The notes below the pieces were generated by a model. The model was not told the origin of the DNA. It saw only the letters and a list, made by a program, of their open reading frames with translations, and ran no database searches. Made by a program: the position numbers and the translations under genes. A DNA stretch of 32,000 bases from Acaryochloris marina S15 (GTDB lineage Bacteria > Cyanobacteriota > Cyanobacteriia > Thermosynechococcales > Thermosynechococcaceae): the NCBI RefSeq assembly GCF_018336915.1, contig NZ_CP064924.1, forward strand, positions 180,001 to 212,000, in the 5' to 3' direction. Shown here piece by piece: positions 902 to 28,609 of this stretch (its first letter is position 1; each line of letters begins with the position of its first letter).

Positions 902-958
902 ATGATGGCTACTAAGCATGACAGTCTTCATTATTACCTCAAAGAGATGGGCCGTTAC
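902..958 (+). pseudogene. Severed 5' end (19 codons) of the sigma-70 family gene that continues at 3842
   Basis: ATG 902 encodes MMATKHDSLHYYLKEMGRY and then runs into the IS4-like terminus at 959. Joining 958 to 3842 restores [18 protein letters not shown], the usual sigma-70 region 1.2/2 entry. Confidence 0.65.
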
Positions 959-976
959 CTACGGTGTACACATAAG

Positions 977-3768: not shown

Positions 3769-3772
3769 ATCT

Positions 3773-4784: not shown

Positions 4785-5411
4785 TCAAAACTTCGCAAGG
4801 CTGATCTGTGCCCCGTCCAGGTTCACCCCTCGCCAACTCCTGACTCTGAATATTGTGCGATTGAGGATTGCACCTCTGAAATCACCACCCCTGACCGAGG
4901 CAGACCTGAAATCCGCATCCGTCAGATCCGCCCCTGAAAAACTGGTGGACTCCAGATTACAACCCACAAAGACGGCATTCTTGAGTGTTGCCCCCTTGAA
5001 GCTGGAGCCTTTGAGGTTCGACTCCCAAAAGTCGATGCCCGTTAGATCCAGCCCAGCAAAATTGCCACCCTCAATTTCTAGGAGAGGGAAATACCGCTCC
5101 CCTGCCTGATACCGCTCAATGATCTTCTTTGCTTTGCTCTCAACGGTATCGTCAAGCCAGTAGGGACCATAATGCTCATCTAGCCACGGCATCCCAGTCC
5201 CATGATTGGACTGCTGCAACAGGTATTTACTGAGTCCTCGCTGACTAAATCGCCACTGACCATCAATACAGGCACCAGGGCAATTACCTTGCAGGGTGGA
5301 ATTCATCAAGCTGTCTTCGGTCACACCCAGGAATTCTGCGGCCTCGTGGGGGAGCAATGCCTTGTCTATCTGTGGGGGCTGGTGGGTGTTGGGGCTGGGG
5401 CTAGTTTGCAT
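4785..5411 (-). CDS. Excisionase/MerR-like HTH domain fused to a pentapeptide-repeat domain
   Basis: The N-terminal LLPHEAAEFLGVTEDSL....WRFSQRGLSKYL resembles an HTH_17/excisionase-type motif. The C-terminal ~90 aa are A(D/N)LXX-type pentapeptide repeats (GADLTDADFRSASVRGGDFRGAILNRTIF..). The gene overlaps the upstream gene by 11 nt. Confidence 0.75.
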   Translation of the reverse strand: MQTSPSPNTHQPPQIDKALLPHEAAEFLGVTEDSLMNSTLQGNCPGACIDGQWRFSQRGLSKYLLQQSNHGTGMPWLDEHYGPYWLDDTVESKAKKIIERYQAGERYFPLLEIEGGNFAGLDLTGIDFWESNLKGSSFKGATLKNAVFVGCNLESTSFSGADLTDADFRSASVRGGDFRGAILNRTIFRVRSWRGVNLDGAQISLAKF

Positions 5412-8076: not shown

Positions 8077-8104
8077 GGGATTCACCTCATTAGGTGGGAG
8101 TTTT
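8075..8104 (-). promoter_or_regulatory. Conserved leader / RBS palindrome, copy 1
   Basis: The 22 nt ATGGGATTCACCTCATTAGGTG are identical to 10180-10201, and 28 of 30 nt match over the full span. The leader contains the near-palindrome CACCTCATTAGGTG, which includes the Shine-Dalgarno sequence. Confidence 0.45.
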
Positions 8105-10884: not shown

Positions 10885-11157
10885 TTAAATATCCTTTCGC
10901 TCATCCGTGATTACATGAGGTAAGAAGGATACGGAAGTTAGCTGTACTCCGATCCTCCCTGGCTTCTCAGATGAACATAGCTCTAAGACTTTCTTCTCCT
11001 CAACAGTAAGGAAAGTACCTAGGGCTGTCTTAGAAGTCAAGGCGAATTCACTAGCCTCATTTTCCAGAGCCATTATTGCCGTCGTAGGCATGAAATAGGC
11101 TTCCCCTGTATCGTAATCTTTGACCTGGTAAATTAGCGCTGCGATAAAGTGTTTCAT
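10885..11157 (-). CDS. Hypothetical protein, 90 aa
   Basis: This ORF lies in the co-directional gene run. No motif was recognised. Confidence 0.5.
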   Translation of the reverse strand: MKHFIAALIYQVKDYDTGEAYFMPTTAIMALENEASEFALTSKTALGTFLTVEEKKVLELCSSEKPGRIGVQLTSVSFLPHVITDERKDI

Positions 11158-13365: not shown

Positions 13366-13484
13366 ATTTTTTCTCCTGAGTTTTGGTGGAGAGGGTAATG
13401 GATTAATATGCCACTACCCTCAGTTGATGAGTTGGGAAGGGGCAAAATAGTATGCCATCCTCCCTTGAAATAGGCAGGCCGATA

Positions 13485-13997
13485 TCACAACTCGCCCCGA
13501 ATCTCCTCAATCACGCCGTCGCGGATCACAACCTCAATCTGCATCTTGCGAATCAGATGGTCGCCTTGCTTGGCATAAAAGAAGTTATCGACCTGGCCTT
13601 GCTCAACTTCCTCGCCCAACTCCAAAGTTTCGATCTGCTCTAGTTGTTGCAAGACCTGAGTCTTCTGCTCCAGCAGTTCACCCTTGCGCTCATTGGCCTG
13701 AGTCTGGATATCTTGGATCTGGGCTTGGGTCTGGGCAATGGAGCTGCCCTCTGGATGGATTTGGACAGTATGATGGCTCAGCTCCCCAACCATTTGTTGA
13801 ACTTGGGCATCCAGTTGGCCTAGTTGTTCATCCAGTTGGTCAGCTTGCGATTGGAGCTGTTGACGGGCTTCGTCTTTCCATAGAGAGGTAACAATGGCCT
13901 TGACGAGGATCAGGCGTTTGAGAAAAAGTTGACTTGAGGATGGAGACTCAACCCACAGTTCAGGTTTTGGTTGGATGAGTCTATCTTGGGTAAGCAT
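13485..13997 (-). CDS. YlqD-family-like coiled-coil protein, 170 aa
   Basis: The protein has a Q/E-rich central coiled coil. Its C-terminal ..GDHLIRKMQIEVVIRDGVIEEIRG resembles the ..IVIKDGIVKEIR ending of YlqD proteins as I recall them. Confidence 0.55.
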   Translation of the reverse strand: MLTQDRLIQPKPELWVESPSSSQLFLKRLILVKAIVTSLWKDEARQQLQSQADQLDEQLGQLDAQVQQMVGELSHHTVQIHPEGSSIAQTQAQIQDIQTQANERKGELLEQKTQVLQQLEQIETLELGEEVEQGQVDNFFYAKQGDHLIRKMQIEVVIRDGVIEEIRGEL

Positions 13998-14030
13998 AAT
14001 TTTCTTTCCTTAATGAGATGGCTTGAAGGT

Positions 14031-14049
14031 GACGGAGTAATATACCGCC
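14031..14049 (-). promoter_or_regulatory. Conserved TGGCGGTAYATT-type motif (plus strand GACGGAGTAATATACCGCC)
   Basis: The TATATT core lies 41 nt upstream of ATG 13997. Confidence 0.45.
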
Positions 14050-14113
14050 GTTAATTTTCTGGATTGGAAATGGCAGGTAATGTGCCATCCGTCTTATTGG
14101 TTTGATTGGAGGT

Positions 14114-14131
14114 GACGGATAATATACCGCC
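14114..14131 (-). promoter_or_regulatory. Conserved motif copy (plus strand GACGGATAATATACCGCC)
   Basis: This is a near-duplicate of 14031-14049, located 83 bp away. Confidence 0.4.
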
Positions 14132-14133
14132 AC

Positions 14134-14439
14134 CTAATGAGATGAAATCGAACCTTCCTGTGAGAATGTACCGCCACTGTTATTTGCCGGACTTGGGGCG
14201 ATGGTTCCTCGCAGCCACCAGCCCCCCAACCCAGCGAGAAGGGTGACTAGCACCACCACCCAAACCCAATACCGGATGTCCGTGAACATCGCAGCTCGGT
14301 ACTCCCACTCTCGGCGGCGTTGGGCAGACTTCATCAGGAGGTGTTGGTTGTCGTTAAACTGCTTGCGTTCTCGCAGGGATTCAATTCGCTCGTTTTCCTC
14401 AAGAATGCTCATCAACCGCGAGTACACCATCTCTCCCAC
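14134..14439 (-). CDS. Hypothetical single-pass membrane protein, 101 aa
   Basis: There is one clear TM segment (YWVWVVVLVTLLAGLGGWWL). The start is ambiguous between GTG 14439 and ATG 14430. Confidence 0.5.
   Translation of the reverse strand: MGEMVYSRLMSILEENERIESLRERKQFNDNQHLLMKSAQRRREWEYRAAMFTDIRYWVWVVVLVTLLAGLGGWWLRGTIAPSPANNSGGTFSQEGSISSH
14161..14176 (-). promoter_or_regulatory. Conserved motif copy (plus strand TGAGAATGTACCGCCA)
   Basis: This 16-mer is identical to 15120-15135. It lies within the last codons of the 101-aa ORF. Confidence 0.4.
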
Positions 14440-14450
14440 AAAAGTCCACG

Positions 14451-15092
14451 CTACTCCTCCACTACAGTGGCCTTTAAGAGCGGTTGCTTTCCCGGCGTTA
14501 GTTGATTAGCCGTTAGCTTACTCACCAGGGCAGCCACCTCCGGGCGCTGCATAATTTCATCGGCTTTCGCCTGGATTCGGGCGTTGACATATCGGTTGGC
14601 ACTCTCATCTAACTCACCCAAAACTTGCACAACCTGATGGATGGTATTTTCCGTCGCCAAGTCGATAATCGGATCTATCTTCCGCTTCAGAACTTCCGGC
14701 AGATCCGATCTTGGGATTGCAGATTCCACCAAAGGCTCATCTTCCACCCCCCGCATCTCTGCCTTGACCACATCAACGGGGTCCATCCCTTCTTCAGAAA
14801 CCTTCTCGCAAACCAGGGAAAACAAGGGATGGTACAAATCATCACCCGTCTCAATCCCTTCATCGGATATCGCTTTGTGGATGGGCTTAAGGTCAACTTG
14901 ATACATCTCAGCGGTATAGATGCACCAGCCATGAGTGTAAGTATCAGCGGTTTTATCTTCTCGGAGTTTCACTACTCCTTGTAGAGTTTCCAGGTCATAG
15001 CCGTCTTCACTCATTCCGCAAGCTCTCAGTAGATGGCCGACTTGCTTGTCATCCATACCGAGGGTCTGCATTAGGTCATTGATAATAGTCAT
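14451..15092 (-). CDS. Hypothetical acidic protein, 213 aa
   Basis: GGAGAAATAAGCGA precedes ATG 15092. A conserved motif lies just upstream. Confidence 0.6.
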   Translation of the reverse strand: MTIINDLMQTLGMDDKQVGHLLRACGMSEDGYDLETLQGVVKLREDKTADTYTHGWCIYTAEMYQVDLKPIHKAISDEGIETGDDLYHPLFSLVCEKVSEEGMDPVDVVKAEMRGVEDEPLVESAIPRSDLPEVLKRKIDPIIDLATENTIHQVVQVLGELDESANRYVNARIQAKADEIMQRPEVAALVSKLTANQLTPGKQPLLKATVVEE

Positions 15093-15119
15093 TCGCTTAT
15101 TTCTCCAAATGTTGTTCTA

Positions 15120-15135
15120 TGAGAATGTACCGCCA
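15120..15135 (-). promoter_or_regulatory. Conserved motif copy (plus strand TGAGAATGTACCGCCA)
   Basis: The TACATT core lies 31 nt upstream of ATG 15092. Confidence 0.45.
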
Positions 15136-15173
15136 GCACTTTTTTGACTGGTGGGATTGGCTTTTTTGTTGGA

Positions 15174-15623
15174 TTAGTCATCCTCTTCAAAGCCCGCATA
15201 GATACTGGGTGCAGAACTGCCAGAATCTACCACCGGGGATTCCTCCGCTTCCCTCGGCGGCTCATAAGGATCAGAAGGTGGCTGCACAATCTCAAGCTCG
15301 ACTGTTGGCATGGAGGGCGCGGGAGGTGAGGGTAAAGATGGTTCGTCGGGAGTTGTCTCTTCTGAGGAGACCAGGATCAGCGCCAGGTCATAGAAGGTTT
15401 CAACTTTGTCCCGCGACAACTCAATCGCCTTGCGTACCTCTGCTACAGAATTGGTCTGGAGCGCTACGGCCAACGGCTTAAATACCGCATAGAGGATAGT
15501 GACACACTTCTCAGAAAAGGAACGACGATAATGGGCTTTCGCTGTCTCAATGATGGTTGTAATCTCCTGATCCTTATCCCAAACGGTATCCATGCGGAAT
15601 CGGTAATGGTTTGGATTTCTCAT
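15174..15623 (-). CDS. Candidate ParR-like centromere-binding adaptor, 149 aa
   Basis: ATG 15623 overlaps the ParM-like stop by 1 nt (TGATG). The N-terminal YRFRMDTVWDKDQEITTIIETAKAHYRRSFSEKCV is compatible with a ribbon-helix-helix fold. A proline-rich linker and an acidic tail (..YAGFEEDD) follow. The call rests on position and architecture only. Confidence 0.5.
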   Translation of the reverse strand: MRNPNHYRFRMDTVWDKDQEITTIIETAKAHYRRSFSEKCVTILYAVFKPLAVALQTNSVAEVRKAIELSRDKVETFYDLALILVSSEETTPDEPSLPSPPAPSMPTVELEIVQPPSDPYEPPREAEESPVVDSGSSAPSIYAGFEEDD

Positions 15624-16699
15624 CAGACTGCCTCCCTGACTGGAGCAGCTTCTAACTGCATCACGGGCGCTGCATGTTGTCGCCACACCAAATACAGATC
15701 GATAAACCTTTGCTGCTGGGAGGCAGATAAATGATGCTGGGTAAATGTAGCTTTGATTTCTTTGCGAACTGGAGCGAGGATATCAGCCTTCGCCTGACAC
15801 AACTCAGCTAAGTAGTCGCCCCAGAACAATGAACCTCCCCCACCGATATACACCCGCTTGGAATTCATAAAGTCGGTATCCGCTTCCAAGTCATCACTTA
15901 GGTCTGCCCACACTAGATCCTTAGCTTCCTTGAGTGCAGCTAGCTTAACCAGACGTTCGTCTTCACTGAGAATTGCAGATAAGCCCCCCTCTCCCCATTT
16001 CATCGCCTCCTCATACAACAGCTTTGCCCCCGTCAGTTCATTGCTGAAGGCAAACGGGAAGTTCCGCAAAATCTTGATGGTTCCGTACCCCGTCCAGGTA
16101 TAAGCATTGGGCACCACATTCGCTTGCTCATCCTTGAGGTTGATAATCGTCACATCCTGATGACCAAACATCAAAATTGAGCAGGGGTACACATTTGCAT
16201 AGTTGGCAAACCCAGACCCTTCTGGATGAACTTGAACCCGGACTGGATTGCAGCGGACGGTGTTGATGCCATATCTGAAACTGCGGATTTGCCGAAAGAT
16301 CAGCTCCTCCGTTTCTCGGTAGTAAGGCGCTTCATTTGAGGGCAGCATCAGATCAATCTCGACATCCAATGGCCGATCACATTCACTCAGGAACTGGCCC
16401 ACAATCGACAGCACCTTAGCCACAGCATGGTGCTTTTTAACCCGATTCACCTTAGTTCGGCGTACCGCTTCCTCGGCATACTCCCCCACAAGCCAATAGT
16501 TTCCATCAAAAGATAGGTGAGATCCTTGCCGATTGTTTACCAAGTTCAGCGATTCGTAGTAGCTAGCGGTGACTTTGCGGATGGCACTGGACTGCAATAT
16601 CAAATCCTCGGTGCCCACTTTGCCGGGATAAGTGATTTGTGCGAGAACTTTCGTCCCAGATGTCCCGGTATCGATTCCAAATTTTGCGTTTGCGTTCAT
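15623..16699 (-). CDS. parM: ParM/StbA-like actin-fold plasmid segregation ATPase
   Basis: Several segments parallel R1 ParM. FGIDTGTSGTKV matches phosphate-1 (IDDGSTNIK). DLMLPSNEAPYY matches CTLPLTEYY. VQVHPEGSGFANY matches VKVMPESIPAGY. VYIGGGGSLF matches the adenosine motif VIGGGA. Confidence 0.8.
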   Translation of the reverse strand: MNANAKFGIDTGTSGTKVLAQITYPGKVGTEDLILQSSAIRKVTASYYESLNLVNNRQGSHLSFDGNYWLVGEYAEEAVRRTKVNRVKKHHAVAKVLSIVGQFLSECDRPLDVEIDLMLPSNEAPYYRETEELIFRQIRSFRYGINTVRCNPVRVQVHPEGSGFANYANVYPCSILMFGHQDVTIINLKDEQANVVPNAYTWTGYGTIKILRNFPFAFSNELTGAKLLYEEAMKWGEGGLSAILSEDERLVKLAALKEAKDLVWADLSDDLEADTDFMNSKRVYIGGGGSLFWGDYLAELCQAKADILAPVRKEIKATFTQHHLSASQQQRFIDLYLVWRQHAAPVMQLEAAPVREAV

Positions 16700-16723
16700 G
16701 GATTTTCACTTCTCCATAATCAA

Positions 16724-16741
16724 CGTAGTAATATACCGCCA
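16724..16741 (-). promoter_or_regulatory. Conserved motif copy (plus strand CGTAGTAATATACCGCCA)
   Basis: The TATATT core lies 30 nt upstream of the ParM-like ATG 16699. Its upstream edge is 9 nt from the nearest iteron. Confidence 0.5.
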
Positions 16742-16750
16742 TCCAAAATG

Positions 16751-16827
16751 ACCGAGTTCCCATCAAGTTCCCGCTGAGTTCCCGCTGAGTTCCCATCAAG
16801 TTCCCAGTGAGTTCCCACGGAGTTCCC
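16751..16827 (-). repeat. parC-like centromere: seven tandem 11-bp iterons
   Basis: The units are accGAGTTCCC, atcAAGTTCCC, gctGAGTTCCC, gctGAGTTCCC, atcAAGTTCCC, agtGAGTTCCC and acgGAGTTCCC, in exact 11-bp register. They read GGGAACT on the gene strand. Confidence 0.7.
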
Positions 16828-17150
16828 AGGTCTGTAGAGCAGACCAGAGAAACTTGCAGGAAAGCTTGGAGTGGTGCTAGTTTGAGGGCAGATTCAAGAG
16901 GTTCTGAAGGGTCGCTGAGGCTCCCACACCCATCACCACTCCGAGGCACCGTTACGGAAATATCCAAGATCGGGCTGACCCTAAATTTTCGTAGTACATT
17001 CAGAAACATTTTCGTAACACCACGTAGTACAACCGTAGTTATTTTGTAACTTCACTCTGTAGTACCCCGTCACATCCCTGTAGTTTTTTCTGAAGCGATC
17101 ACGTTTGGGATCGTCTGATTTTGTTTGCAATTTTTTTCGCAGGTTTTCCC

Positions 17151-17393
17151 ATGCTTAAAACTTTCCTGCTCAGACTTTGGCAACCAGTCATTCATTTTTT
17201 CGGTCGTTCCCAAGCTGATGATGCAAAAGCAATTGAATTCCAAGAGTTCTATCAGAAGGAGCAGGCAGACCTCGATCTGATATTCGCTGACCCGAAGACC
17301 CTCTCAATGGCTCACCACATCCAAGGGAATCCTGATCTCCGTGAGGCATATCAAGCCGCAGTTCAAGATTGCCTGAAGCATCTGGGCGACTGA
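17151..17393 (+). CDS. Hypothetical 80-aa protein immediately upstream of the relaxase (possible relaxosome accessory factor)
   Basis: The stop lies 15 nt before relaxase ATG 17409. I prefer ATG 17151 over the track's TTG 17121. The functional suggestion rests on position only. Confidence 0.45.
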   Translation: MLKTFLLRLWQPVIHFFGRSQADDAKAIEFQEFYQKEQADLDLIFADPKTLSMAHHIQGNPDLREAYQAAVQDCLKHLGD

Positions 17394-17408
17394 GCCAGAG
17401 GCCCACTC

Positions 17409-20400
17409 ATGAAGACGATGCGGACCATAACGAGTGATTTAGTCTCCTATTACGAGGAAGATGAATCTCTCGTTGATGCTGTGGATCGCTACTATGGTCA
17501 GGCTGAAACAGTTTCTGAAGTGGACCGGATGACAACGGCCATCTGGGCGGGGTCGGCTTCAGTGGTCAAAAAGCTTAGTAAGCAGGTCAAACGTGAGGAT
17601 CTGAAGTCCTTGACGAGGGGCCTTATCCCCGCTTCTGCCAAAGGCATGGCGAAGGGTGCAGCCCAGAGGATTAGAGGCAAGAAACCTAATGCAGAAGACA
17701 GTGAACGTCTCGCCCATGACGTTACTTTGTCTGCGCCCAAAAGTGTGTCGATGGCCTTGCACTTGGAGGGGGATAACCGCTTATTCGATGCCCACATGGA
17801 GGCAGTTCTAGAAACTTTCGAGCTGCTTGAGCGGGAGTATGCCCAGTCTCGGATTCAGGTGAATGGAGTGCGCTCCGTCGTCAACACGGGCAACATGATT
17901 GCGGCATTGATTCCCCATCACACGTCCCGCGATGGCGATATGCAGCTGCACACCCACATGCTGATCATGAATGGGACGGAAGGGCCAGATGGTCAGTGGC
18001 GCTCCCTCTCCCATGAAAAGCTGGCAAAGGCTAAGTGGGTAGGAAGTTTCTACCGTCAGAAGTTAGCGGAGAAGGTGCAACGGCTGGGATATCGGATCTA
18101 TGAAACTAAACATGGGTTTGAGCTAGAGGGCTATAACCGTGCGGATGTCGAGGTCTTTTCCAAACGCCACCGGGCCATCGTCAAGGCGGTGATGGATGAG
18201 GGGCTAGCAGTCACTCCTCAGAATAAGAAGCAAAAGGTATTGACGACTCGCCAAGCCAAGCGGGGAGTGGGTAAAAAGCTGGAGACGATCCAAGACCATT
18301 GGCGAGAGGAAGCCCATTTTCAAGCTGTGGGGCATCCGGTATTGGCTGGACCTTTGGCAATGGTGTCAGATCCAGATAAAGCCAAGGTGGAGGTTGACAG
18401 TGCTATCCGTCATTTTTCTGAATGGTCATCCGTGTTCGAGCAAGATGACATCTATACCTACATCTTCAAGAACATCCGCCCCGAAGGCATGGCAATGGAA
18501 CAGGTTGATGAGGCCATTAGCCAAAGCAAGGAACTGATACCCGTCGATCGGGGATTCACCACAGTCACTGCCGTTGAAGAAGAAGCCCAGATCCATCAAC
18601 ACTGGATGGCAGGCCAAAGCCAAGCACAGCCAATGGTTTCTACCCCCTCCCTTGCAGGAATGGGAGTCAAGCTCAATGATGATCAGGCCAAAGCGGTACT
18701 CGGAACTCTAACGAGTACAGACCGTTATCAAATCTGGCAGGGCTTTCCAGGGGTCGGCAAGTCCAGAAGCTTAGGGGCTTTGAAAACGTTACTCGCTGCC
18801 TCGGGTCTTGTGATTCGGGGTTTTTCACCCACTATCCCCGCAGCGATAAACCTCCAAGATGAACTAGGGATTCCCACTAATACTGTCGAGCATTTAGTCA
18901 GGAGCCAGCCCAAGGCTGCATCCAAACAAGTCTGGCTCATTGATGAGTCTGGCATGATCAGCCGCAAACAGATGCTCAAGATCATGAATCATGCCGAACG
19001 CACGGGCGCTCGATTAGTGTTTGTTGGGGATAAAGGCCAGAACTCTGCCATCACTGCTGGTAGTCCTTTCAGGTTTATGCAACAGAATGGAGCCACGACT
19101 CACCGGATTGAGGAGATTGTTCGACAGAAAAATCCGGTACAGAAGCAAGCGGTTGAACTCATCTCTAATGGTCAAGGAGAAAAGGCTTTAGATCTCCTCA
19201 GTGCGAATGATTATGTGATCGACTTAGGGAGCAGGGGAGCTATCGTCAAAGCGGCAGCGGCCCAGTTCTTGGCTTTACCCCTCGCAGAACAAGACAAGAC
19301 TCTGATTGTCGCTGGGACCAATGAACAACGACTCGCCGCAGAAAAAGAGATTCGTAAGGGGGAAAAAGCAACCGGACGGCTAGGAGAATCTAGCAAAATC
19401 GTTCAGCTCTCCTCTCGGCACATGAGTATTGAGCAAAAACGTCGAGCGGATTGGTATCACCAGGGAGACTATCTCCGCTTGTTGCAAGACTACAAAAGCA
19501 CTGGCCTCACGAGAGGACAGCTCTACAAGGTAGAGAAACGCGAGGGTAAGGAACTGATCGTCTCTTCCTTAGGAGGTAGATTATATCGAGTCAATCCTGC
19601 CAAGTTCAAAGACAAAGAGGTTTACCATGCCCAAGAGTTTGATGTGGCCGTGGGTGACAAGCTCCGATGGACAACTACTATCCGGGAGAACAACTGGATC
19701 AACGGCCAGCAGCTCACGGTCACGGCCCTCGACAGCCTGAATATGTCGGTTGTAGATCGTGAGGGACGCTCTCATGATGTCCCCCTCACTCAACCTTTGG
19801 CCTTGGAATATGACCGAGTATGGACCTCGTATCGCTCCCAGAGTGCCACCAAGAAACGGACGATCATCATTGCAACGAATGACCGCACCTCTAACCAGGA
19901 GCCGTTCTGTGTTGATATTTCCCGCCAAGAAAGTGAACTGACGATCTACACGGAAGACCTTGGAAAACTCAGAGAGCGAGTCCAAGAATCCAATGCCCAA
20001 GAAAATGCTTTAAATCTCATTGAGGAAACCTATGGAAATCAACGAACAACTACAAGCGATCACGACCGCGATGACGGCCATGAGCGAACTTCAGCAACAA
20101 AACCAACAGTTGCTGACACAAAATCAAGAACAGATGACCGCCATTCAGCAGCAAAACCAGGAGCTGTTAGAAGAGAACAGAGAACTCAAGTCCCAGGTCC
20201 GGGAGAGAATCAACACCATCCCGATGGAGGTCAAACACGTTCTCAACACTTTCATCCAGGAATTCAAGGAGGCGATGGCGGCCAAGAAGCCCTCGGACAT
20301 GAGCGAGTCGATCAAGGAACTCGCCAAATCGATGGACAACTTGAAGATGAAAATAGAGGATACCAGCGTCTTGCAGATGACAATGGGCGACAAGGTGTTG

Positions 20401-23006: not shown

Positions 23007-23018
23007 TCGGCAGGATAG

Positions 23019-24032
23019 CTAGAGGCTTTGACCTTGATCATGATTTGGGGCTTGCGTTCCCTGCTTCAAATCTAGACTTTCAGTGGTCAGGCTTTTCATC
23101 CGGGCACCTCTAACGACTATAGCCGCTGCCCGTACACCTTTTTCCTGTCCTTGCTCAGCCACAATTCCTCGAATAGTTGGATCATGCTTTAGCAACATTG
23201 ATTCAACCTTAGACTTGGCATACCCTGCCTTCAGTGCATTCTGGGCAACGAGGCCCGCCCCAATTAAGCCTGGCTGATCAACTTTAGATGAGAACTCGTT
23301 GTAGAGAGTTTGGCTGTCTTGTTCTTTGGATAGAGGGATATTGCTTGTACTCTGCTGCCGCTCATTCAAAAGTTGTTCTGCACCAAGATGTAGGGAGAGA
23401 ACAACATCCTCACCTTTATTGAAAAGACTCAGAACCTCATCCGTTGCAAAGGATGAACTGTACCGATCTACCAAATGATCTGGCTCCGAGGCAAACTGAT
23501 GAATGGCCTCTATCTGGTCATCCCGTAGTTGTGACCCATAATGATTCACCAGAAATTCAAGATCGTACAGATCCCGAGCCGCTGTTCGATGTTGGGCTGC
23601 TGATAACTTCTGATCAAATTGCTGCTCTATTCGGTAGGTCTTGATACCTGAGATTGTCTCAATGGCTTCAGACTGGGGGCTTTCCCGAAAGCTAGTCTCT
23701 ACCTTGAGTAACCTATCTTGCCCTGTAACCTGATCTAAATAATGAAGCTTGTACCGCTGGACAGTATCCGTATCTTTGACCAACTTTAGTGATTTCAATT
23801 CGATACCATTCACATTCCTAATGGCAGACTCAATTCGACCCTTGAGATTTAGCTTTTTTGTAGAGTCAAAATCTAAGTCCGTAGAATAGCGATCCAGGGC
23901 ACGAGTGAAGATGAGTGCCGCACCTCCCTTGAGGACATAAGGCGTATCACCGACTTGTTGAGCGACTGACCGCATCAAGTCCAAGTGGATGGACTGGGAA
24001 GGGTTTATACGAATTTCACGGTCTGAATCCAT
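23019..24032 (-). CDS. AbiEii/DUF1814-family nucleotidyltransferase (type IV TA / abortive-infection toxin) with a ~110-aa C-terminal extension
   Basis: YVLKGGAALIFTRALDRYSTDLDFDS (NTase GG..R.S.D.DF motif) and ..HRTAARDLYDLEFL.. are the hallmark AbiEii motifs. Residues ~226-337 lie beyond the usual domain. Confidence 0.8.
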   Translation of the reverse strand: MDSDREIRINPSQSIHLDLMRSVAQQVGDTPYVLKGGAALIFTRALDRYSTDLDFDSTKKLNLKGRIESAIRNVNGIELKSLKLVKDTDTVQRYKLHYLDQVTGQDRLLKVETSFRESPQSEAIETISGIKTYRIEQQFDQKLSAAQHRTAARDLYDLEFLVNHYGSQLRDDQIEAIHQFASEPDHLVDRYSSSFATDEVLSLFNKGEDVVLSLHLGAEQLLNERQQSTSNIPLSKEQDSQTLYNEFSSKVDQPGLIGAGLVAQNALKAGYAKSKVESMLLKHDPTIRGIVAEQGQEKGVRAAAIVVRGARMKSLTTESLDLKQGTQAPNHDQGQSL

Positions 24033-24547
24033 TGCTTAAAAATTCTGAGGGGTTCACCTGATAGTTGGATTGCCAAGCGTTCTAAGTACTCTCGTTTGAG
24101 GTGATCAACTTGCTCTTCCGTATCCAGCCAACTATTGATTGCCGCATTGTCTGCAATACTCGGTACTTTGGATTTCTGGAGATCCAGCATCGCTAAGTCT
24201 GCGATAGCCCGATAATGATTGGCGACATATATAGGTTGATCCGAGGGAATGGATAATCCTTCCTGAAACAAAATTGAAGACATATCTCGCACTCCCTGAT
24301 GACCTAGGGAAGGCGTTGTATCAACCTGCTGACCCTTTCCAGCAAGGGGGATGCTCTTTTGAGTTGTTAGGGCATCCGTTTGTTCAAAAAAGTAGGGCTG
24401 AAAATGCCAATCCCCCGTGTCTTCATCTGGGAAACGAAGGTTGAGTGCATGTTTGAACGAGATATACCGCTCCAGGGTCGTCTCAGGAATCGGCACTGGA
24501 CGTAACAGAACTTCTTTTAAATCTTGGGTGGGAGAAAGCTCGTTCAT
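24005..24547 (-). CDS. Hypothetical 180-aa protein, candidate cognate partner (antitoxin position) of the AbiEii-like gene
   Basis: It lies immediately upstream of the NTase gene and overlaps it by 28 nt. I saw no AbiEi-like winged HTH. Confidence 0.5.
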   Translation of the reverse strand: MNELSPTQDLKEVLLRPVPIPETTLERYISFKHALNLRFPDEDTGDWHFQPYFFEQTDALTTQKSIPLAGKGQQVDTTPSLGHQGVRDMSSILFQEGLSIPSDQPIYVANHYRAIADLAMLDLQKSKVPSIADNAAINSWLDTEEQVDHLKREYLERLAIQLSGEPLRIFKQWIQTVKFV

Positions 24548-24594
24548 ACTGCCCCTGGCATTCCTCTAGCTTAATCACAGAATATCAGAGGCAA

Positions 24595-24632
24595 CAAAAG
24601 GGAGCAGCTATCGCAACAGCTTCTCCCTTTTG
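24595..24632 (-). terminator. Probable rho-independent terminator of the coupling-protein operon
   Basis: A perfect 10-bp stem CAAAAGGGAG / CTCCCTTTTG is extended by an inner AGCT/AGCT pairing, with an 8-nt loop. It abuts the stop of the 82-aa ORF. On the minus strand the stem ends in CCCTTTTG followed by TTG. Confidence 0.55.
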
Positions 24633-24881
24633 CTAATCCCGATCACCAAAATCTCTCAAAAATCCTAAAGTTATTCGCCAAGTGCCTTGGAACAAGCTGA
24701 TAACGCAAGCCCATGCCATGATCAATGCACCTACATCCCATGTTCGCTTGAGATAGTCGATAAAAGCATGAAATGCTTCGATCCCTAGATAAACCATTCC
24801 TATCAACAGGATGGGAGGTCCATATTTGCGGATAAAATTACGCAGGGTAGGAAACCTATGTTTTCGGGTGAACTTACGCAT
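24633..24881 (-). CDS. Small membrane protein, 82 aa
   Basis: GGAG lies upstream of ATG 24881. There are two hydrophobic segments (PPILLIGMVYLGIEAF, GALIMAWACVISLF). Confidence 0.55.
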   Translation of the reverse strand: MRKFTRKHRFPTLRNFIRKYGPPILLIGMVYLGIEAFHAFIDYLKRTWDVGALIMAWACVISLFQGTWRITLGFLRDFGDRD

Positions 24882-24892
24882 GATGGCAACTC

Positions 24893-26419
24893 CTATAGTT
24901 CCGGTTCACTGTGGGCCAAGGCAGGCTCTTTCTCTGGCTGCTTGGGGGATACGCCATTACTAACGGCCTTGGCAATTTGCTCGGCTCTCTTTAAATATTT
25001 CTCGGCACGTTCCACATTCCCCCCCTGCTGCTTTACTTTCTCTATGCGTGGATCGATGGACTTTCCTTGCTCCTGTTTAACTTGGTCTTTGGTCTTAAAT
25101 TCACCTTCAGCACGTTGCTTCTCTTGAGGAGCAAGATTATAGGTATCAACGAGCTTCTGACCTTCCTTTAGGTGTAATACTACTCTGCTTCCCACTTTAA
25201 TCTTGAATTCACCTTCAAAATCCTTAAAATTCGTTAATGCTTCTTTGATATCTTCCATTTGCTGGTCACTAATCTGGGTGACGGAGCGGTCAATATCTCC
25301 TCCACGCATCCCAAAGATTTGCTCTTTGTTATAAAAGACCGCCATCCTGGAGATATCCACACCCCGCTGGTCTAAACCAGACAACGCCTCTAATAAGCTA
25401 TCCTCAGCTTCTTTAGACGAGTTCTCGTAGTTGTACTGCTCTAAGGCTGTATTTGTCGCATCCGCTAAATACGGAGAGACATCCTGAAGATTCTTATCTG
25501 ACATATCGGTCACATTCGGACCCTGAGCAACGATGGCGGTTGCCTCATCCACATCTTTACCTTCTCTCAATGCCTGGTGAGCAACATGCTCGTCATAAAT
25601 TAAGGCTAATTCTGGTTTGCCTTGGATATTTTGCTCAATCTGCTCATAGCTACTGAGGTCTGGATCTTTGTGGTATTCAGACAGTAGTCTTGCATACTCA
25701 GCTCGTCGCTCCATATCTGGCTCAATTGCTGTGGGGGCTTGGTTGATTGTGTCTGCCATTGTCGTCTGTCTCCCTTGTAGTTTTTGAATGGTTTGCTGAA
25801 CACTTTGCTGCATCTCGGCTAGCCAAGTCTTGGTGCGGTCGATATAGTGGTTGGTCATTTTCCAGGCATGGACTATCGGACGAGCCATCACGACAGGAAC
25901 ACCTTTGGCCGCATAGCTGATCGCCAATTTCCCCGTATCAATAATCCCTTTGCCAATCACCGATGGGGCGACAATCCCGCTCAACGGTCGTGCCCACGCA
26001 TCCGTCTTCGCCAACATGTCAGCGGTTCTGACTTTCGCCCAGGCATCAAATGCACTTTGCCGACCCCAACCATGTGGAACTTGACTGGCTAGATCTGTAA
26101 AGTTTTTGGCTATCTGATCAGCACGTATCCCATGAATCCCCGAATGCATCAGATGAGTGGTTTGGGATATTGCACCCGCAACCACTGGACCCACAATCGG
26201 GGCATGGGTCGCAGCAAAGGCCGCTCCTGGAAGCGCTGCAATCTGGATTCCCTTCTTGGCGACCCACGCTAATGGGGCACCCTCAAAATAGAGTTGTTCT
26301 TTCTCCTGTAGTTCTCTGTATTTGTCGCCAATGAAGTTGTGATATTGATACTTTATCGGTGGACTAGATTTCTCAGTCTCCCCTTTTTGGTCAACGATAT
26401 TGTTATCTTCATGTTCCAT
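24893..26419 (-). CDS. Hypothetical protein, 508 aa
   Basis: A strong RBS, AAGGAGGAAATAAATA, precedes ATG 26419. The N-terminal third is glycine/alanine-rich and hydrophobic. No catalytic motif was recognised. Confidence 0.7.
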   Translation of the reverse strand: MEHEDNNIVDQKGETEKSSPPIKYQYHNFIGDKYRELQEKEQLYFEGAPLAWVAKKGIQIAALPGAAFAATHAPIVGPVVAGAISQTTHLMHSGIHGIRADQIAKNFTDLASQVPHGWGRQSAFDAWAKVRTADMLAKTDAWARPLSGIVAPSVIGKGIIDTGKLAISYAAKGVPVVMARPIVHAWKMTNHYIDRTKTWLAEMQQSVQQTIQKLQGRQTTMADTINQAPTAIEPDMERRAEYARLLSEYHKDPDLSSYEQIEQNIQGKPELALIYDEHVAHQALREGKDVDEATAIVAQGPNVTDMSDKNLQDVSPYLADATNTALEQYNYENSSKEAEDSLLEALSGLDQRGVDISRMAVFYNKEQIFGMRGGDIDRSVTQISDQQMEDIKEALTNFKDFEGEFKIKVGSRVVLHLKEGQKLVDTYNLAPQEKQRAEGEFKTKDQVKQEQGKSIDPRIEKVKQQGGNVERAEKYLKRAEQIAKAVSNGVSPKQPEKEPALAHSEPEL

Positions 26420-26455
26420 TATTTATTTCCTCCTTATGGAGCATTCTTGATGCCC

Positions 26456-26473
26456 GTAGTAATGTACCGCCAG
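26456..26473 (-). promoter_or_regulatory. Conserved motif copy (plus strand CGTAGTAATGTACCGCCA)
   Basis: This 18-mer is identical to 28592-28609. The TACATT core lies 42 nt upstream of ATG 26419. Confidence 0.5.
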
Positions 26474-26830
26474 CTATCTTTCCTGCTGTCTGTCGATACT
26501 CGGATCCCGTTGGGGTGAGCTGGGGAACTGGTCTACGGCATTGGAAATCTGGGCCTTACGCACAATCAAGGACTCCGCTTTCTTAACGTCACCCCCTTGA
26601 GCTTCAACGGCATCGAGAAACCCCGTCTGCTTGATTGCCCCTGATAGTTCTTTTGGGCTGAAACCTCGCTGTTGACCTTCCTTTGCCACTTGCACCGCTT
26701 GCTTAAAGGTTGCGGTCACATTGGGGGGTCTCAAAAAGTTGGATTGGATTGCCCTGCTGAGTATGGCTTGCGTGAGTTCTTTACTTGCCCCCAGCATTTC
26801 TCTGAAATCTTGGTCGTCTGATGATGACAT
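26474..26830 (-). CDS. Hypothetical protein, 118 aa
   Basis: The ORF lies between the coupling-protein gene and the 508-aa gene. It contains the short helical module discussed in the findings. Confidence 0.6.
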   Translation of the reverse strand: MSSSDDQDFREMLGASKELTQAILSRAIQSNFLRPPNVTATFKQAVQVAKEGQQRGFSPKELSGAIKQTGFLDAVEAQGGDVKKAESLIVRKAQISNAVDQFPSSPQRDPSIDRQQER

Positions 26831-26850
26831 GGCTATCTTCCTCGATAAAG

Positions 26851-28569
26851 TTATACAGAATCTACTGCTGCTTTCCGTTCGCTCAGAGTTTCCGATTTAT
26901 GGAGCTTCTCTAACTCAGCCCCCGTGGGTAACATCGACTCTGCAATGTCCGCACGTTCACTGACGACGTATTCTGGTGTGATGCCTAGATCTCTCGACTG
27001 GCGACAGTACAGCAGAAACGGGTGGATGTGAGAGTACCAAAGCGTTTTATTCTCTTCTCTCAAGGCTTCATCGTTTTTGTTGAGTGGAACTTTCAGGCGA
27101 TGTGCCCGTTGCTTCCAACCAGGGGATTGGATTAGACATTCTCCAGGTTCAAATGTATCAATCTCATCTGCTGTGATAAGTGGGACTTTGCGATGTTGCT
27201 CGGAGCGGTTGCGACTACTGCCTGAACGACTGTTATGCCCCGTGGAGCGGGTCTTGTAGACTTCCGTGAAAGTCCCTAGGGAGTCGCTCAAGCTCTTATC
27301 AGTGGAATGATGGCCTGTGCGAAAGTGGATTCTCGTGCCAAGAGAACTGAGAATTGACATGGCATGGTCCCTTGTATACCTCAAGTTGATCTGAGCATCA
27401 CTCTGATAGGACAGGAGACAGCACATTCCATACTCTCGGTACAAGTTAATCCACCGCTCAATATCTGGCAGACGAATTGAGGTGAATTCATCCAAGCATA
27501 GAAACAGAGGCCGATCCCGACTCACTTCTGCGTTCAGGTTGTGCCGCATCAACATATGAATGACTGCGGCACATAAGGGCGAGGTCGTACTCTCAGCGTT
27601 CTCATCAATTTGCACCCATACGATCTGTTTACCTGGGAGGTCCAGTGGAATCGTGGAGCTGGTAATAGAAGGGATAACACTGGCATCCATCAGCGCTTGG
27701 AAGTTCGTAACCGCTGTGCCCACAATCCCCCCAGCGGTTTTCTCTGCTTTGGAGACGGACCTTAAACCCAGTGCCGCTTGGTTAGCCCAAAAGTCTAAGT
27801 CACCCTCTAAGTCAAATTGACCATATTGGTGGGCCGCGAGTAGCCGTTGGGGAAGGTCTTCTAAGCTGAGGAATCCCCAGGCTGAGACGAGATCTTGATA
27901 GACATGGCTTTTGGCGAGTAGGAAGACGGTCTTGAGCAAGCTATCGCCTTGGGGACCAAAGAACCCATCTTTGCGACTTCCCGGTACTTCAAAGTTAGCG
28001 TTGATGGTCTTTGCAAGTTCCAGGGCTTCTTTTGAGCCACCCCGTTCTGGAATGAAGTCTAGGAGATTGAGGCTATCCGTGTGAGCTTTGCCAGGACAGA
28101 AAAAATACTGCTGATACCCCAATCGTTGGGCAAGGGCGGCATGTCGCTTTTGCAAGCTTCCTTTGATGTCGTAGATGATGGCTGTGAAGCCTTGGCGAAG
28201 GATATCATCAATACAATTTTCGACGACACTTTTGGTCTTGCCATAGCCACTCGCTCCAATCACGCTAATTCCAGGCTGGCAGTCCGTGAGGATGAGCTTC
28301 CGATCACTCCCCAGGCTCAAGGAGCATCCATCTACTGTGGCATCTCGGATCTGTTTGAGTCCTCGCCATCGGGCTTTGCGAATTTCTCCAGGGGTGGCAA
28401 ATCGGGCATCGCGTTTACTCCGTCCATGACCATTCTTGCTGTCAAGGATAGTCGCAAGGAGGAGGAGGAACCCGATCATGCCCAAGAGCCAGGGCAAGGG
28501 ACTGCTCAACAACGGCCCCAGATCCACGGGGGGCTGTGTGGGTTGAGGTTGATTTGTCTGGGTTTGCAT
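26851..28569 (-). CDS. Type IV secretion coupling protein (VirD4/TraG/TraD family ATPase)
   Basis: An N-terminal TM segment (LPWLLGMIGFLLLLATIL) is followed by Walker A VIGASGYGKTKS and Walker B-like PLFLCLDEFTS. The length and layout are typical of T4CPs. Confidence 0.88.
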   Translation of the reverse strand: MQTQTNQPQPTQPPVDLGPLLSSPLPWLLGMIGFLLLLATILDSKNGHGRSKRDARFATPGEIRKARWRGLKQIRDATVDGCSLSLGSDRKLILTDCQPGISVIGASGYGKTKSVVENCIDDILRQGFTAIIYDIKGSLQKRHAALAQRLGYQQYFFCPGKAHTDSLNLLDFIPERGGSKEALELAKTINANFEVPGSRKDGFFGPQGDSLLKTVFLLAKSHVYQDLVSAWGFLSLEDLPQRLLAAHQYGQFDLEGDLDFWANQAALGLRSVSKAEKTAGGIVGTAVTNFQALMDASVIPSITSSTIPLDLPGKQIVWVQIDENAESTTSPLCAAVIHMLMRHNLNAEVSRDRPLFLCLDEFTSIRLPDIERWINLYREYGMCCLLSYQSDAQINLRYTRDHAMSILSSLGTRIHFRTGHHSTDKSLSDSLGTFTEVYKTRSTGHNSRSGSSRNRSEQHRKVPLITADEIDTFEPGECLIQSPGWKQRAHRLKVPLNKNDEALREENKTLWYSHIHPFLLYCRQSRDLGITPEYVVSERADIAESMLPTGAELEKLHKSETLSERKAAVDSV

Positions 28570-28591
28570 GTTGCTTACCGCAATTTAGGTA

Positions 28592-28609
28592 CGTAGTAAT
28601 GTACCGCCA
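28592..28609 (-). promoter_or_regulatory. Conserved motif copy (plus strand CGTAGTAATGTACCGCCA)
   Basis: The TACATT core lies 28 nt upstream of the coupling-protein ATG 28569. Confidence 0.5.

Follow-up and report, generated by a model that had tools for sequence, protein, structure and literature searches.

A repeated motif on an Acaryochloris megaplasmid, most likely a shared promoter without a -35 box for DNA transfer and partition genes

The stretch of DNA analysed here (32,000 nucleotides of Acaryochloris marina S15, hereafter the window) belongs to an Acaryochloris megaplasmid, of which it is the conjugation/partition module. The genes, motif copies and neighbouring elements considered below are the following, with + and - denoting the strand.

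820-957: 5' end and upstream region of a small sigma-70 gene
958-3831: 2.9-kb insert with a Mutator-family transposase, splitting the small sigma-70 gene
3698-4612, +: 3' part of the same sigma-70 gene, group-2-like and encoding about 274 aa
12934-13365, -: 143-aa gene, heading a long minus-strand gene string that reaches 5401
13405-13415, -: variant motif copy AGTGGCATATT of the 143-aa gene, whose ATG follows after 39 nt
13430-13466, -: hairpin just 3' of the YlqD stop codon, embedding a decayed motif-like word, GGATGGCATACT
13485-13997, -: YlqD-family gene, 41 nt downstream of the final array copy (14039-14049)
14039-14175, -: tandem array of four motif copies, 38-45 bp apart, upstream of the YlqD-family gene: GGCGGTACATT at 14165-14175, GGCGGTATATT at 14121-14131, GATGGCACATT at 14079-14089 and GGCGGTATATT at 14039-14049
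14451-15092, -: 213-aa gene
15124-15134, -: motif copy GGCGGTACATT of the 213-aa gene, whose ATG follows after 31 nt
15224-15234, -: degenerate motif copy GGTGGTAGATT, in the 3' end of a 170-aa ORF
15623-16699, -: ParM/actin-like gene
16730-16740, -: motif copy GGCGGTATATT of the ParM-like gene, directly downstream of parC-like iterons and followed after 30 nt by the ATG
16754-16828, -: iterons, GGGAACT seven times at 11-bp intervals (repeat analysis: period 11, 6.8 copies)
24893-26419, -: 508-aa gene, with an AAGGAGG Shine-Dalgarno sequence between motif and ATG
26461-26471, -: motif copy GGCGGTACATT of the 508-aa gene, whose ATG follows after 41 nt; the 18-mer form lies at 26455-26472
26851-28569, -: type IV coupling protein (T4CP) gene
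28598-28608, -: motif copy GGCGGTACATT (extended form TGGCGGTACATTACTACG, 28592-28609), 28 nt before the T4CP ATG

All of the copies listed in the original prediction were present in the sequence, with small corrections: the 18-mer placed at 26456-26473 lies one nucleotide lower, and the hexamer is 41 nt, not 42, from the ATG of the 508-aa gene, while the other distances (28, 30, 31 and 41 nt) were as given. GGCGGTAYATT occurs seven times on the gene (minus) strand of the window against 0.5 expected, and RTACCGCC seven times, exclusively on the + strand (shuffle mean 0.51, with 0 of 100 shuffles reaching seven). When one mismatch was allowed, TAATRTACCGCC had seven occurrences (0.05 expected) and the generalised gene-strand form GGYGGYAYATT had 12 (2.5 expected), 11 of them on the minus strand. 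A less biased test started from GGYGG pentamers, asked for an abutting NANNNT and pooled four related modules. On the gene strand 45 of 140 pentamers were followed by such a hexamer (about 10 expected), which was YAYATT in 29 cases, and on the opposite strand 10 of 127 were, which is the chance level. The motif is not equally frequent on the other strand and inside genes, and the finding stands.

The hexamer of the proximal copies ends 28-41 nt 5' of the start codons of six operons, and between each of these copies and its start codon lies a Shine-Dalgarno sequence. The hexamer was seen as TACATT, TATATT, CATATT, CACATT, TAGATT, CAGATT and TACGTT, so that the A at position 2 and the T at position 6 are constant across all variant forms and position 3 is free. 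A scan for canonical -35/-10 promoters returned eight sites against 16 expected, none of them intergenic or at a gene start. Judged from the sequence, the motif behaves like a -10-like hexamer with an abutting 5-nt upstream extension and without a -35 box. This agrees with one part of the earlier interpretation, a shared promoter type, in that the G-rich extension directly 5' of the hexamer is fixed and orthologous positions are kept; its other parts (plasmid-wide distribution, a small sigma-70 reader and a global operator) were not supported.

Conservation was evident at individual copies. The T4CP copy is conserved in pMB01, pREB3 and pREB1, where it reads GGCGGTACGTT, and the promoter block CCCACCnCAAA..CATGGCGGTACATTA is retained between plasmids despite a T4CP protein identity of only 36%. 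The copy of the 508-aa gene has its pMB01 orthologue at position 29802 of L001, and that of the ParM-like gene is GGCGGTACATT in pREB1, with GGGGGTAYATT preceding the ParM-like genes of pMB01 and pREB3. In pREB3 the position before the 213-aa gene carries three tandem copies, 45 bp apart. The 13405-13415 copy is identical in pMB01, and in pREB1 and pREB3 the form GGTGGCATATT predominates. The YlqD array, whose first copy in the window (14165-14175) lies inside the non-conserved 3' tail of a 101-aa ORF, contains 3-6 copies in pMB01, pREB3 and pREB1. Arrays of 3-6 copies placed 38-45 bp apart are uncommon among promoters and lie outside the reach of the model proposed below. Furthermore, a region upstream of the T4SS peptidase gene contains a U-run hairpin (z = -3.6) with the motif directly after it, and in pMB01 a relaxed match lies 27 nt before the peptidase ATG. 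The iterons at 16754-16828, an element separate from the motif, form a parC-like centromere/operator that belongs to the ParM-like system.

The motif had been described as plasmid-wide. In the nearly complete 394-kb relative pMB01 (390.6 kb scanned) there were seven strict matches, five of them clustered in 16.6 kb (Poisson P = 2e-7); the motif is restricted to the module of conjugation, partition and T4SS genes and is module-wide rather than plasmid-wide. In related plasmids the hexamer is kept and the extension replaced as one block. The form in pMB03 is AACMG-TATATY (ACMGTATATYC seven times, on the gene strand only and found nowhere else), in pMB04 GCAAGCC-TAATAT (GCAAGCCTA..AT six times), in pREB7 CTGCC-TATGTT (TTTGCACC-N12-CTGCCTATGTT six times, with a -35-like TTGCAC at 18-nt spacing) and in L008 CACGGGTATATTATCTRCG (four times). 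The YlqD proteins of the window and pMB03 share 92% identity; the pMB03 gene nonetheless has the pMB03 promoter variant. Two GGTGGCATATT copies are kept in pMB03 before the homologue of the 143-aa gene, unlike the variant used elsewhere on that plasmid, which counts against the reading proposed below. pMB01 and pMB03 are co-resident in one cell, with different extensions.

Within-plasmid uniformity together with between-plasmid difference points to a plasmid-encoded trans factor, whatever its kind. From sequence comparison, the promoter reader is probably an unusual sigma factor encoded by the transfer system itself. The candidate, AM1_C0036 of pREB3, has 697 aa (425-701 aa among family members), and genes of its type, found only in Acaryochloris, lead the T4SS operon, outside the window; a sigma gene lies near the head of the T4SS cluster in every module type. 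For the replicon of the window itself, whose T4CP had no exact-sequence record, carriage of this sigma would be by analogy with the relatives. A Pfam search of the pMB01 and pREB3 proteins, even at E <= 10, gave region 2 only. The predicted structure adds a short region-3-like helical bundle and lacks region 4, and it further contains a membrane-spanning helix and an extracytoplasmic beta domain in a model whose mean pLDDT is only 44.6; with such a helix, release from the membrane might be needed for action. Identity of the T4SS-operon sigma to that of pMB01 is 80% in pREB3, 27% in pMB04 and 21% in pMB03. In the plasmid collection, relatives at least 75% identical were found only in pMB01, pREB3, pREB1 and pMB05, which are exactly the users of GGYGG-YAYATT. 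Moreover, L031 and L032, whose sigma N-terminal domain is 83-91% identical to that of pREB3, both retain the motif at the peptidase promoter, and in L030, with a 48% identical sigma altered in the 2.4/3.0 stretch, the terminator is kept and the motif is absent. The AM1_C0036-type sigma thus appears to track the motif variants, across few lineages that are partly kin by descent.

Published RNA-seq data contrasting low far-red light with high white light (PMC11633204) also bear on this candidate. AM1_C0036 changed by log2 -3.9 and C0030-C0039 by log2 -2.8 to -4.3, and the motif-bearing block C0368-C0382 mostly by log2 -1.8 to -2.85, against mostly log2 -0.43 to -0.85 in the flanking C0354-C0367 (C0364, -1.25; the small sigma C0355, -0.59) (PMC11633204). 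Induction of the ParM/ParR-region genes was weak (log2 -0.75 to -1.25; PMC11633204), which counts against the proposal. The sigma is co-induced with motif-bearing operons (PMC11633204), a correlation from one contrast in which the pREB3 copies also shift (4 vs 3) and the mapping of locus tags to genes is possibly off by one.

All these data suggest that the motif is most likely a shared promoter of the DNA-transfer and partition genes, without a -35 box. We hold with moderate confidence the fuller reading that it is a module-specific promoter of this kind, read by a divergent Acaryochloris T4SS-operon sigma in lineage-matched versions. Its core would be a sigma-70-family -10 hexamer, YAYATT (-12 to -7), with GGYGG abutting at -17 to -13, and one cassette or a tandem array would stand before each conjugation/partition operon, serving the coupling protein, 508-aa, ParM-like, 213-aa and YlqD genes and the gene string headed by the 143-aa gene; in relatives the promoter would also precede the T4SS peptidoglycan hydrolase gene. 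Transcription would start about 6-8 nt downstream of the hexamer and give 5' UTRs of about 20-35 nt. RNA polymerase carrying the AM1_C0036-type sigma would read these promoters in a cascade, in which a master promoter drives the sigma/T4SS operon and the sigma then fires the motif-bearing promoters. The extension version of each plasmid lineage would be matched to its own sigma version, and in this way co-resident megaplasmids could control transfer independently.

Parts of this arrangement have counterparts elsewhere. Phage T4 late promoters consist of an extended -10-like element alone (TATAAATA), read by gp55, a truncated sigma-family protein without a -35-binding domain that is encoded by the mobile element itself and acts together with gp33, a co-activator, and the sliding clamp. 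gp55 is not known to share sequence similarity with the proposed sigma, which belongs to a plasmid and has a long C-terminal extension that includes a predicted membrane helix. In IncP (KorA/KorB/TrbA) and IncW R388 plasmids, one short word at transfer, partition and maintenance promoters controls the backbone as a unit; those words are palindromic repressor operators over host sigma-70 promoters, whereas the present motif is asymmetric, strictly gene-oriented and apparently the promoter itself. SigN (ZpdN) of Bacillus subtilis pBS32 is a plasmid-encoded alternative sigma with a plasmid-borne regulon and its own promoter class (PMC6751061), but it belongs to another sigma lineage and host phylum, its regulon is linked to cell death after DNA damage and not to conjugation/partition (PMC6751061), and no lineage-specific promoter variants are described for it.

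The closest known analogues appear to be two cyanobacterial extended -10 promoters. The J-Box (GGGaAtacT) of SigJ, a group-3 sigma of Nostoc punctiforme, likewise combines a -10 hexamer with near-invariant A and T, an invariant GGG extension directly 5' and a weak or absent -35, and many operons that form one regulon have it upstream in forward orientation (PMC6495340). The SigF promoter PpilA1 of Synechocystis PCC 6803 has GGG at -15 to -13, GGTAA and TAAGTT, is stringently recognised by one alternative sigma and controls a cell-surface apparatus (PMC2532724). These resemblances raise the possibility that a host chromosomal group-3 sigma of the SigF/SigJ type, with an extended -10 and a G-run, reads the motif, which would tie the transfer genes to the host cell-surface/motility regulon. 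Of nine positions, the L008 form GGGTATATT shares seven with the J-Box, and seven with the pilA1 word if the latter is read as GGGTAAGTT, reconstructed from the positions reported in PMC2532724; GGGGG ahead of the pMB01 and pREB3 ParM-like genes fits as well. However, the motif extension is 5 nt long and has C or T, not G, at -15 in most window copies, and no G-run is present in pMB03, pMB04 or pREB7. PpilA1 needs a -32 TAGGC and an AG-rich upstream stretch (PMC2532724), and the motif has no conserved -32/-35. Unlike the J-Box, the motif is plasmid-borne, limited to one transfer module and present in several lineage-specific versions, and its likely reader is not a SigJ orthologue. Divergence between pMB01 and pMB03 within one cell is unexpected for a single host reader, as is the exchanged promoter of the well-conserved YlqD gene. 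We consider a host reader unlikely.

Uniformity inside a plasmid and difference between plasmids could also be explained if the conserved flanks were the operator of a plasmid repressor or activator over an ordinary host-read -10, in a network like that of IncP or of R388 ArdK/StbA with the arrays as cooperative sites. The 3-6-copy arrays and their spacing, a partial dyad GGTGRC-N9-GYCACC in the YlqD-array copies and the reappearance of the ACTACG tail of three copies in oriT-like repeats at 16990-17095 fit this explanation. To our knowledge, however, the known global plasmid operators are palindromes; the common core here is asymmetric and always gene-oriented, so that the IncP-like operator first suggested is disfavoured. 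No dyad is present at the single-copy sites (T4CP, 508-aa and 213-aa genes), the module encodes no Pfam-recognisable DNA-binding regulator, and sigma domain 3 contacts -13 to -17, which is the variable part of the motif; an operator is therefore quite unlikely. The small plasmid sigma-70 factor beside the module, the reader originally conceived, is very unlikely. In the window, pMB01 and pMB03 its gene adjoins the module (farther off in pREB1 and pREB3), and the protein has neither H455 nor E458, the residues with which E. coli sigma-70 contacts an extended -10, and is hypervariable at the two residues ahead of a conserved HW (ER, DH, AC, VW, HY). Its alleles nevertheless do not track the motif variant: the window copy is 94% identical to that of pMB03, where the variant differs, and 63% identical to those of pMB01 and pREB3, which share the window's variant, while pREB1 and pREB3 use the same variant with small sigmas 58.6% and 88.3% identical to that of pMB01, respectively. 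The gene is indeed split by the insertion, as had been noted, yet the motif copies are all intact; it occurs in every large Acaryochloris plasmid regardless of the transfer module, and the change of its pREB3 orthologue C0355 equals the copy-number baseline. Least probable, and highly unlikely, is an RNA-level element of the 5' UTR (a translational-regulator or processing site). The coding-strand position close to start codons and the small hairpins possible for some copies would fit, but an Rfam search of the window gave no match, no consistent secondary structure is common to the copies, some copies lie in the 3' tails of upstream ORFs, and the pREB7 variant is paired with a -35-like box at canonical spacing. 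At the peptidase gene, moreover, the motif begins right after an intrinsic terminator, and an upstream transcript would not normally include it.

Lastly, two further elements were observed near the copies. The degenerate copy at 15224-15234, absent from the earlier list, lies 100 nt upstream of the 15124-15134 copy; its pREB1 orthologue is GGCGGTAGATT, and L008 carries a complete copy at the corresponding place within the gene. The hairpin at 13430-13466 has a folding energy of -17.4 kcal/mol (z = -1.1), and its pREB3 counterpart (z = -2.5) carries GGGGTATATTATTTGCCCC in the loop.

All the motif copies listed in the original prediction were found in the window, where RTACCGCC occurs seven times, always on the + strand and antisense to the minus-strand genes (0.5 in shuffles). 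The 12-mer TAATRTACCGCC with up to one mismatch recovers the same seven sites (0.05 expected in the window), and the gene-strand core common to the copies is GGCGGTAYATT. When the forms seen in relatives were admitted, GGYGG-YAYATT with up to one mismatch matched 12 sites (2.5 expected), of which the gene strand has 11. The positions and gene distances predicted at the outset hold overall, except for one 18-mer, whose position is 26455-26472, and for one distance of 41 nt instead of 42. The array of the window and an added copy are at:

14039-14175: tandem array of motif copies
15224-15234: degenerate copy, added here

Such tandem arrays precede the YlqD and 213-aa genes and contain 3-6 copies with a period of 38-45 bp. 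Some copies lie within the 3' tails of upstream ORFs, in their non-conserved parts. At six operons the hexamer is 28-41 nt from the ATG, with a GGAG-type Shine-Dalgarno sequence in between in five of them. We also ran a hexamer-unbiased test on four related modules, counting NANNNT at zero spacing after GGYGG pentamers; it was found at 45 of 140 pentamers on the gene strand and at 10 of 127, which is the chance level, on the opposite strand.

Judging from these sequence features, the motif is very likely the promoter of the module operons; a search of the literature turned up no TSS map for Acaryochloris plasmids. Every copy is YAYATT or a near variant of it, such as TAGATT or TACGTT, and through all variant forms seen the second base of the hexamer stays A and the sixth stays T, while position 1 is T or C and position 3 is C, T or G. 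The constancy of A2 and T6 is what a sigma-70-family -10 element would show; in such elements the -11 A and the -7 T are flipped out at promoter opening. The earlier reading that there is no obvious -35 is borne out, as no conserved -35 hexamer exists at 16-18 nt spacing and a consensus scan found no canonical -35/-10 pair at these motif sites and gene starts. At -40 to -28 the information content does not exceed 0.3 bit, and a weak A-tract at -27 to -24 (0.4-0.5 bit) is the sole upstream feature. Regarding the extended -10 TG (-15/-14), T(-15) G(-14) is present in GGTGG-CAYATT copies and C(-15) G(-14) in GGCGG-TAYATT copies; G(-14) and G(-13) are constant in the GGYGG variant and missing from the pMB03 variant. 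Additionally, relatives have a terminator-then-promoter layout at the T4SS peptidoglycan-hydrolase (peptidase) gene, where the motif comes immediately after a strong U-run hairpin (z = -3.6) and the ATG stands 27 nt further on.

The window is the conjugation/partition part of an Acaryochloris megaplasmid and encodes a MobF relaxase (+ strand), a type IV coupling protein (T4CP), ParM/actin-like and YlqD-family proteins, an AbiEii toxin and many ORFs without Pfam match; two large ones, of 894 aa (5401-8085, -) and 508 aa (24893-26419, -), have neither Pfam matches nor significant PDB sequence matches. The window shares 89% identity with pMB01 and about 79% with pREB1 and pREB3 of A. marina MBIC11017, and the motif occupies orthologous positions in pMB01, pREB1, pREB3 and pMB05. 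T4CP genes whose proteins are only 36% identical still share the block CCCACCnCAAA..CATGGCGGTACATTA. The modules are highly mosaic, with gene-by-gene protein identities among relatives ranging from 24% to 100%. The motif had been described as plasmid-wide, a scope that a count over 390.6 of the 394 kb of pMB01 reduces to module-wide: the strict motif occurs there seven times versus about three expected, and five of these matches fall within a 16.6-kb module (Poisson P = 2e-7). The two strict matches outside the module are located in a coding sequence and 110 nt upstream of an unrelated gene, and one relaxed match precedes the T4SS peptidase gene by 27 nt. A conserved GG(T/C)GGCATATTAGCGAGTGGCATC is also found about 0.85 kb inside the T4CP coding sequence of pREB3 (L002 28239, -) and pREB1 (L003 27033, -), which may be an internal promoter or chance.

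Word counts over upstream regions served for motif finding. Other Acaryochloris modules retain the layout and have exchanged the flanks of the hexamer as a block. The pMB03 variant, ACMGTATATYC, has seven occurrences, every one on the gene strand, and is absent elsewhere; a MAG contig (L008) carries four copies of CACGGGTATATTATCTRCG. pMB04 uses GCAAGCC followed by TAATAT or TATAGAT, and pREB7 uses TTTGCACC-N12-CTGCC-TATGTT, where TTGCAC lies 18 nt from the hexamer in a normal bacterial -35/-10 geometry. Each of these last two variants is present six times, with copies before the relaxase genes among them:

L016 (pMB04) 16049, 19790, 22142, 39214 and 40654 (+): pMB04 cassettes
L016 (pMB04) 35905 (-): pMB04 cassette
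L017 (pREB7) 7207, 19800, 22755, 32857 and 34378 (+): pREB7 cassettes
L017 (pREB7) 29930 (-): pREB7 cassette

One strain houses both pMB01 and pMB03. The YlqD proteins of the window and pMB03 are 92% identical and their promoter is nonetheless each plasmid's own variant. This uniformity within plasmids, together with the divergence between them, argues for a plasmid-encoded trans-acting reader. On pMB03, whose copies are elsewhere of the AACMG variant, two GGTGGCATATT copies precede the homologue of the 143-aa gene (L004 15413 and 15456, -); these could be relics; alternatively, the A-type sigma (the version of pMB01, pREB3, pREB1 and pMB05) of co-resident pMB01 or pMB05 may read them in trans.

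Among described promoter classes, the nearest are the J-Box of SigJ, GGGaAtacT, an extended -10 with a weak -35 (PMC6495340), and the SigF-dependent PpilA1 promoter with GGG at -15 to -13 and GGTAA/TAAGTT (PMC2532724). The motif shares their architecture but differs in sequence and in its likely reader; the window copies have CGG or TGG at -15 to -13, and GGG is found there only in L008 and in a few pMB01/pREB3 copies. A sigma-54 promoter (-24/-12; TGGCAC-N5-TTGC, GG/GC 10 nt apart) was rejected because the spacing fits a single degenerate copy, 14079-89 (TGGCACATTACCTGCC), and sigma-54 is absent from cyanobacteria (PMC11345509). The 18-nt conservation also suggested a promoter for a single-subunit, T7-like RNA polymerase, a reading that we discarded as the 894-aa and 508-aa ORFs lack Pfam or PDB polymerase matches and the pREB7 variant is laid out as a bacterial -35/-10 promoter.

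Readings other than a promoter were considered as well. A palindromic global operator of the IncP/IncW type does not suit a core that is asymmetric and used in one orientation, with a partial dyad in the YlqD-array copies only; a search for a cognate repressor gene returned no Pfam DNA-binding regulators among the module ORFs, many of which are without any annotation. There were no Rfam matches to a known RNA family. A parC centromere was rejected: a single motif copy precedes the ParM-like gene, where a separate repeat takes that role:

16754-16828 (-): direct repeats of GGGAACT, seven units every 11 bp, a separate element directly upstream of the motif copy of the ParM-like gene

These repeats look like the parC-type centromere/operator of a type II partition system, with the downstream 170-aa ORF as its putative ParR-like adaptor.

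Two sigma factors were considered as readers of the motif. The small sigma-70 of the window, proposed originally as a conceivable reader and as disrupted by an IS, is a group-2-like protein (3698-4612, +) whose disruption is real:

820-957 (+): 5' end of the small sigma gene
958-3831: 2.9-kb insert, with a Mutator-family (IS256-like) transposase at 1652-2938
3832-4612 (+): remainder of the small sigma gene

In the split ORF, about 20 foreign codons now form the start, and the YLxxIG motif of region 1.2 has been lost. The comparison does not support the small sigma as reader, since its alleles do not track the motif variants and one such gene is found on every large Acaryochloris plasmid: the window copy is 94% identical to that of pMB03 and 63% to those of pMB01 and pREB3, and pREB1 and pREB3 have a common motif variant and divergent small-sigma alleles. 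This family lacks the extended -10 contact residues H455 and E458 of E. coli sigma-70 (region 3.0, window 4100-4200; L001, L002, L004 and L019), and the two residues preceding its conserved HW are hypervariable (ER, DH, AC, VW, HY).

A second, large sigma is encoded near the head of the T4SS cluster in all module types, and we lean slightly towards this T4SS-operon sigma, the best candidate, as the reader of the motif. Its length varies (537 aa in pMB01, 697 in pREB3, 461 in pMB03 and 568 in pMB04), and the pREB3 protein, AM1_C0036 (L029 6716-8809, -), is annotated as a 'sigma-2 subunit domain protein'. The family comprises 11 clusters among 5.8 billion proteins, the named ones all from Acaryochloris and several from metagenome contigs. 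The pMB01 and pREB3 proteins are 80% identical, while those of pMB03 and pMB04 are 21% and 27% identical to that of pMB01; close relatives in the plasmid collection are restricted to pMB01, pREB3, pREB1 and pMB05, exactly the users of GGYGG-YAYATT. In this regard, two more contigs with a sigma N-terminal domain 83-91% identical to that of pREB3 keep the motif at the peptidase promoter, and another contig, encoding a sigma of 48% identity in which the 2.4/3.0 stretch is changed, retains the terminator and has no motif. Furthermore, Pfam detects region 2 alone in the pMB01/pREB3-type protein, even at E <= 10, and region 4 is sub-threshold in that of pMB03; promoters with no -35 suit a sigma that has no -35-binding domain. 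The combination recalls T4 gp55, an element-encoded sigma that works with -10-only promoters, and, as a plasmid-encoded sigma, could also be likened to SigN of pBS32.

A structure prediction of the large sigma (mean pLDDT 44.6) was used for domain layout only, given its low confidence. The layout it suggests runs from region 2 through a region-3-like bundle of three helices and a long disordered linker to a hydrophobic helix (433-450), and on to a beta domain and a helical domain at the C-terminus. A VirB9-like identity for the beta domain was dropped, with no Pfam matches at E <= 10. In AM1_C0036 and the family members P0001-P0011, an internal Met is followed by a signal-peptide-like or transmembrane stretch (MYKTIAAMIAAWLGLLISPATA) and then by a conserved beta-rich domain, which could mean either that the sigma is membrane-tethered or that translation from an internal, in-frame start yields a second, secreted protein.

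Published RNA-seq data of MBIC11017 in low far-red versus high white light showed log2 changes of -2.8 to -4.3 for C0030-C0039, mostly -1.8 to -2.85 for the motif-bearing block C0368-C0382 and mostly -0.43 to -0.85 for the neighbours C0354-C0367 (C0364, -1.25; the small sigma C0355, -0.59), with a plasmid copy-number change of only 4:3 (PMC11633204). This link between sigma operon and motif block is a correlation, and locus tags may have been assigned to genes with a shift of one. No motif precedes the sigma/T4SS operon itself; upstream of its first gene lies the 19-bp palindrome TTTCTGTATTRCACAGAAA (pMB01, L026 ~23473-23491, -; pREB3, L029 ~10895-10913, -), a possible operator through which a master switch would control the transfer programme. 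Such an arrangement would fit a two-step cascade.

Taken further, and as something possible rather than probable, the megaplasmids of Acaryochloris may be equipped with orthogonal sigma/promoter pairs. A leading gene of the T4SS operon would supply every conjugation module with a sigma of its own, membrane-tethered, without detectable region 4 and with an extracytoplasmic domain, and all transfer/partition operons of the module would be preceded by a matching promoter variant (TAnnnT plus an extension of 5-7 nt specific to the lineage). This would let several related plasmids in the same cell start their transfer programmes independently of one another, and the periplasmic domain of the sigma might link firing to the state of the envelope or the secretion machine. 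To our knowledge, almost nothing is known about the control of transfer in cyanobacterial conjugative plasmids. If true, our reading would provide a defined promoter class for an entire transfer/partition module, a concrete candidate regulator, AM1_C0036, which according to published data is the top-expressed sigma in far-red light, and a natural set of apparently orthogonal sigma/promoter pairs that could serve as expression parts for cyanobacterial engineering. It would also give a handle on why Acaryochloris has so many sigma genes, with up to 33 homologues in one strain (PMC11119718). If a host sigma were the reader, the finding would remain a clean annotation of the module promoters.

Lastly, another repeated element lies close to the relaxase gene:

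16990-17095 (+): cluster of (C/T)GTAGT words (CGTAGTACATT, CGTAACAC, CGTAGTAC, CGTAGTTA, TGTAGTAC and others) between the ParM-like operon and the relaxase

This cluster, conserved in pMB01, pREB1 and pREB3, is probably the oriT/relaxosome region and may have a relaxase promoter (G-TACATT) inside. The reverse complement of its word, ACTACG, is the tail of three group-1 motif copies. An AbiEii-family nucleotidyltransferase toxin gene with an overlapping upstream 180-aa ORF (23019-24547, -) occurs in the window and pMB01 and is missing from pREB1, pREB3 and pMB03; located between relaxase and transfer genes, the pair looks like a toxin-antitoxin or abortive-infection insert. Directly 3' of the YlqD stop codon there is a hairpin without a U-run (window 13430-13466, -; pREB3, L002 15020-15050, -), and its stem and loop consist of a motif-like word (GGGAGGGGTATATTATTTGCCCCTTCCC in pREB3).
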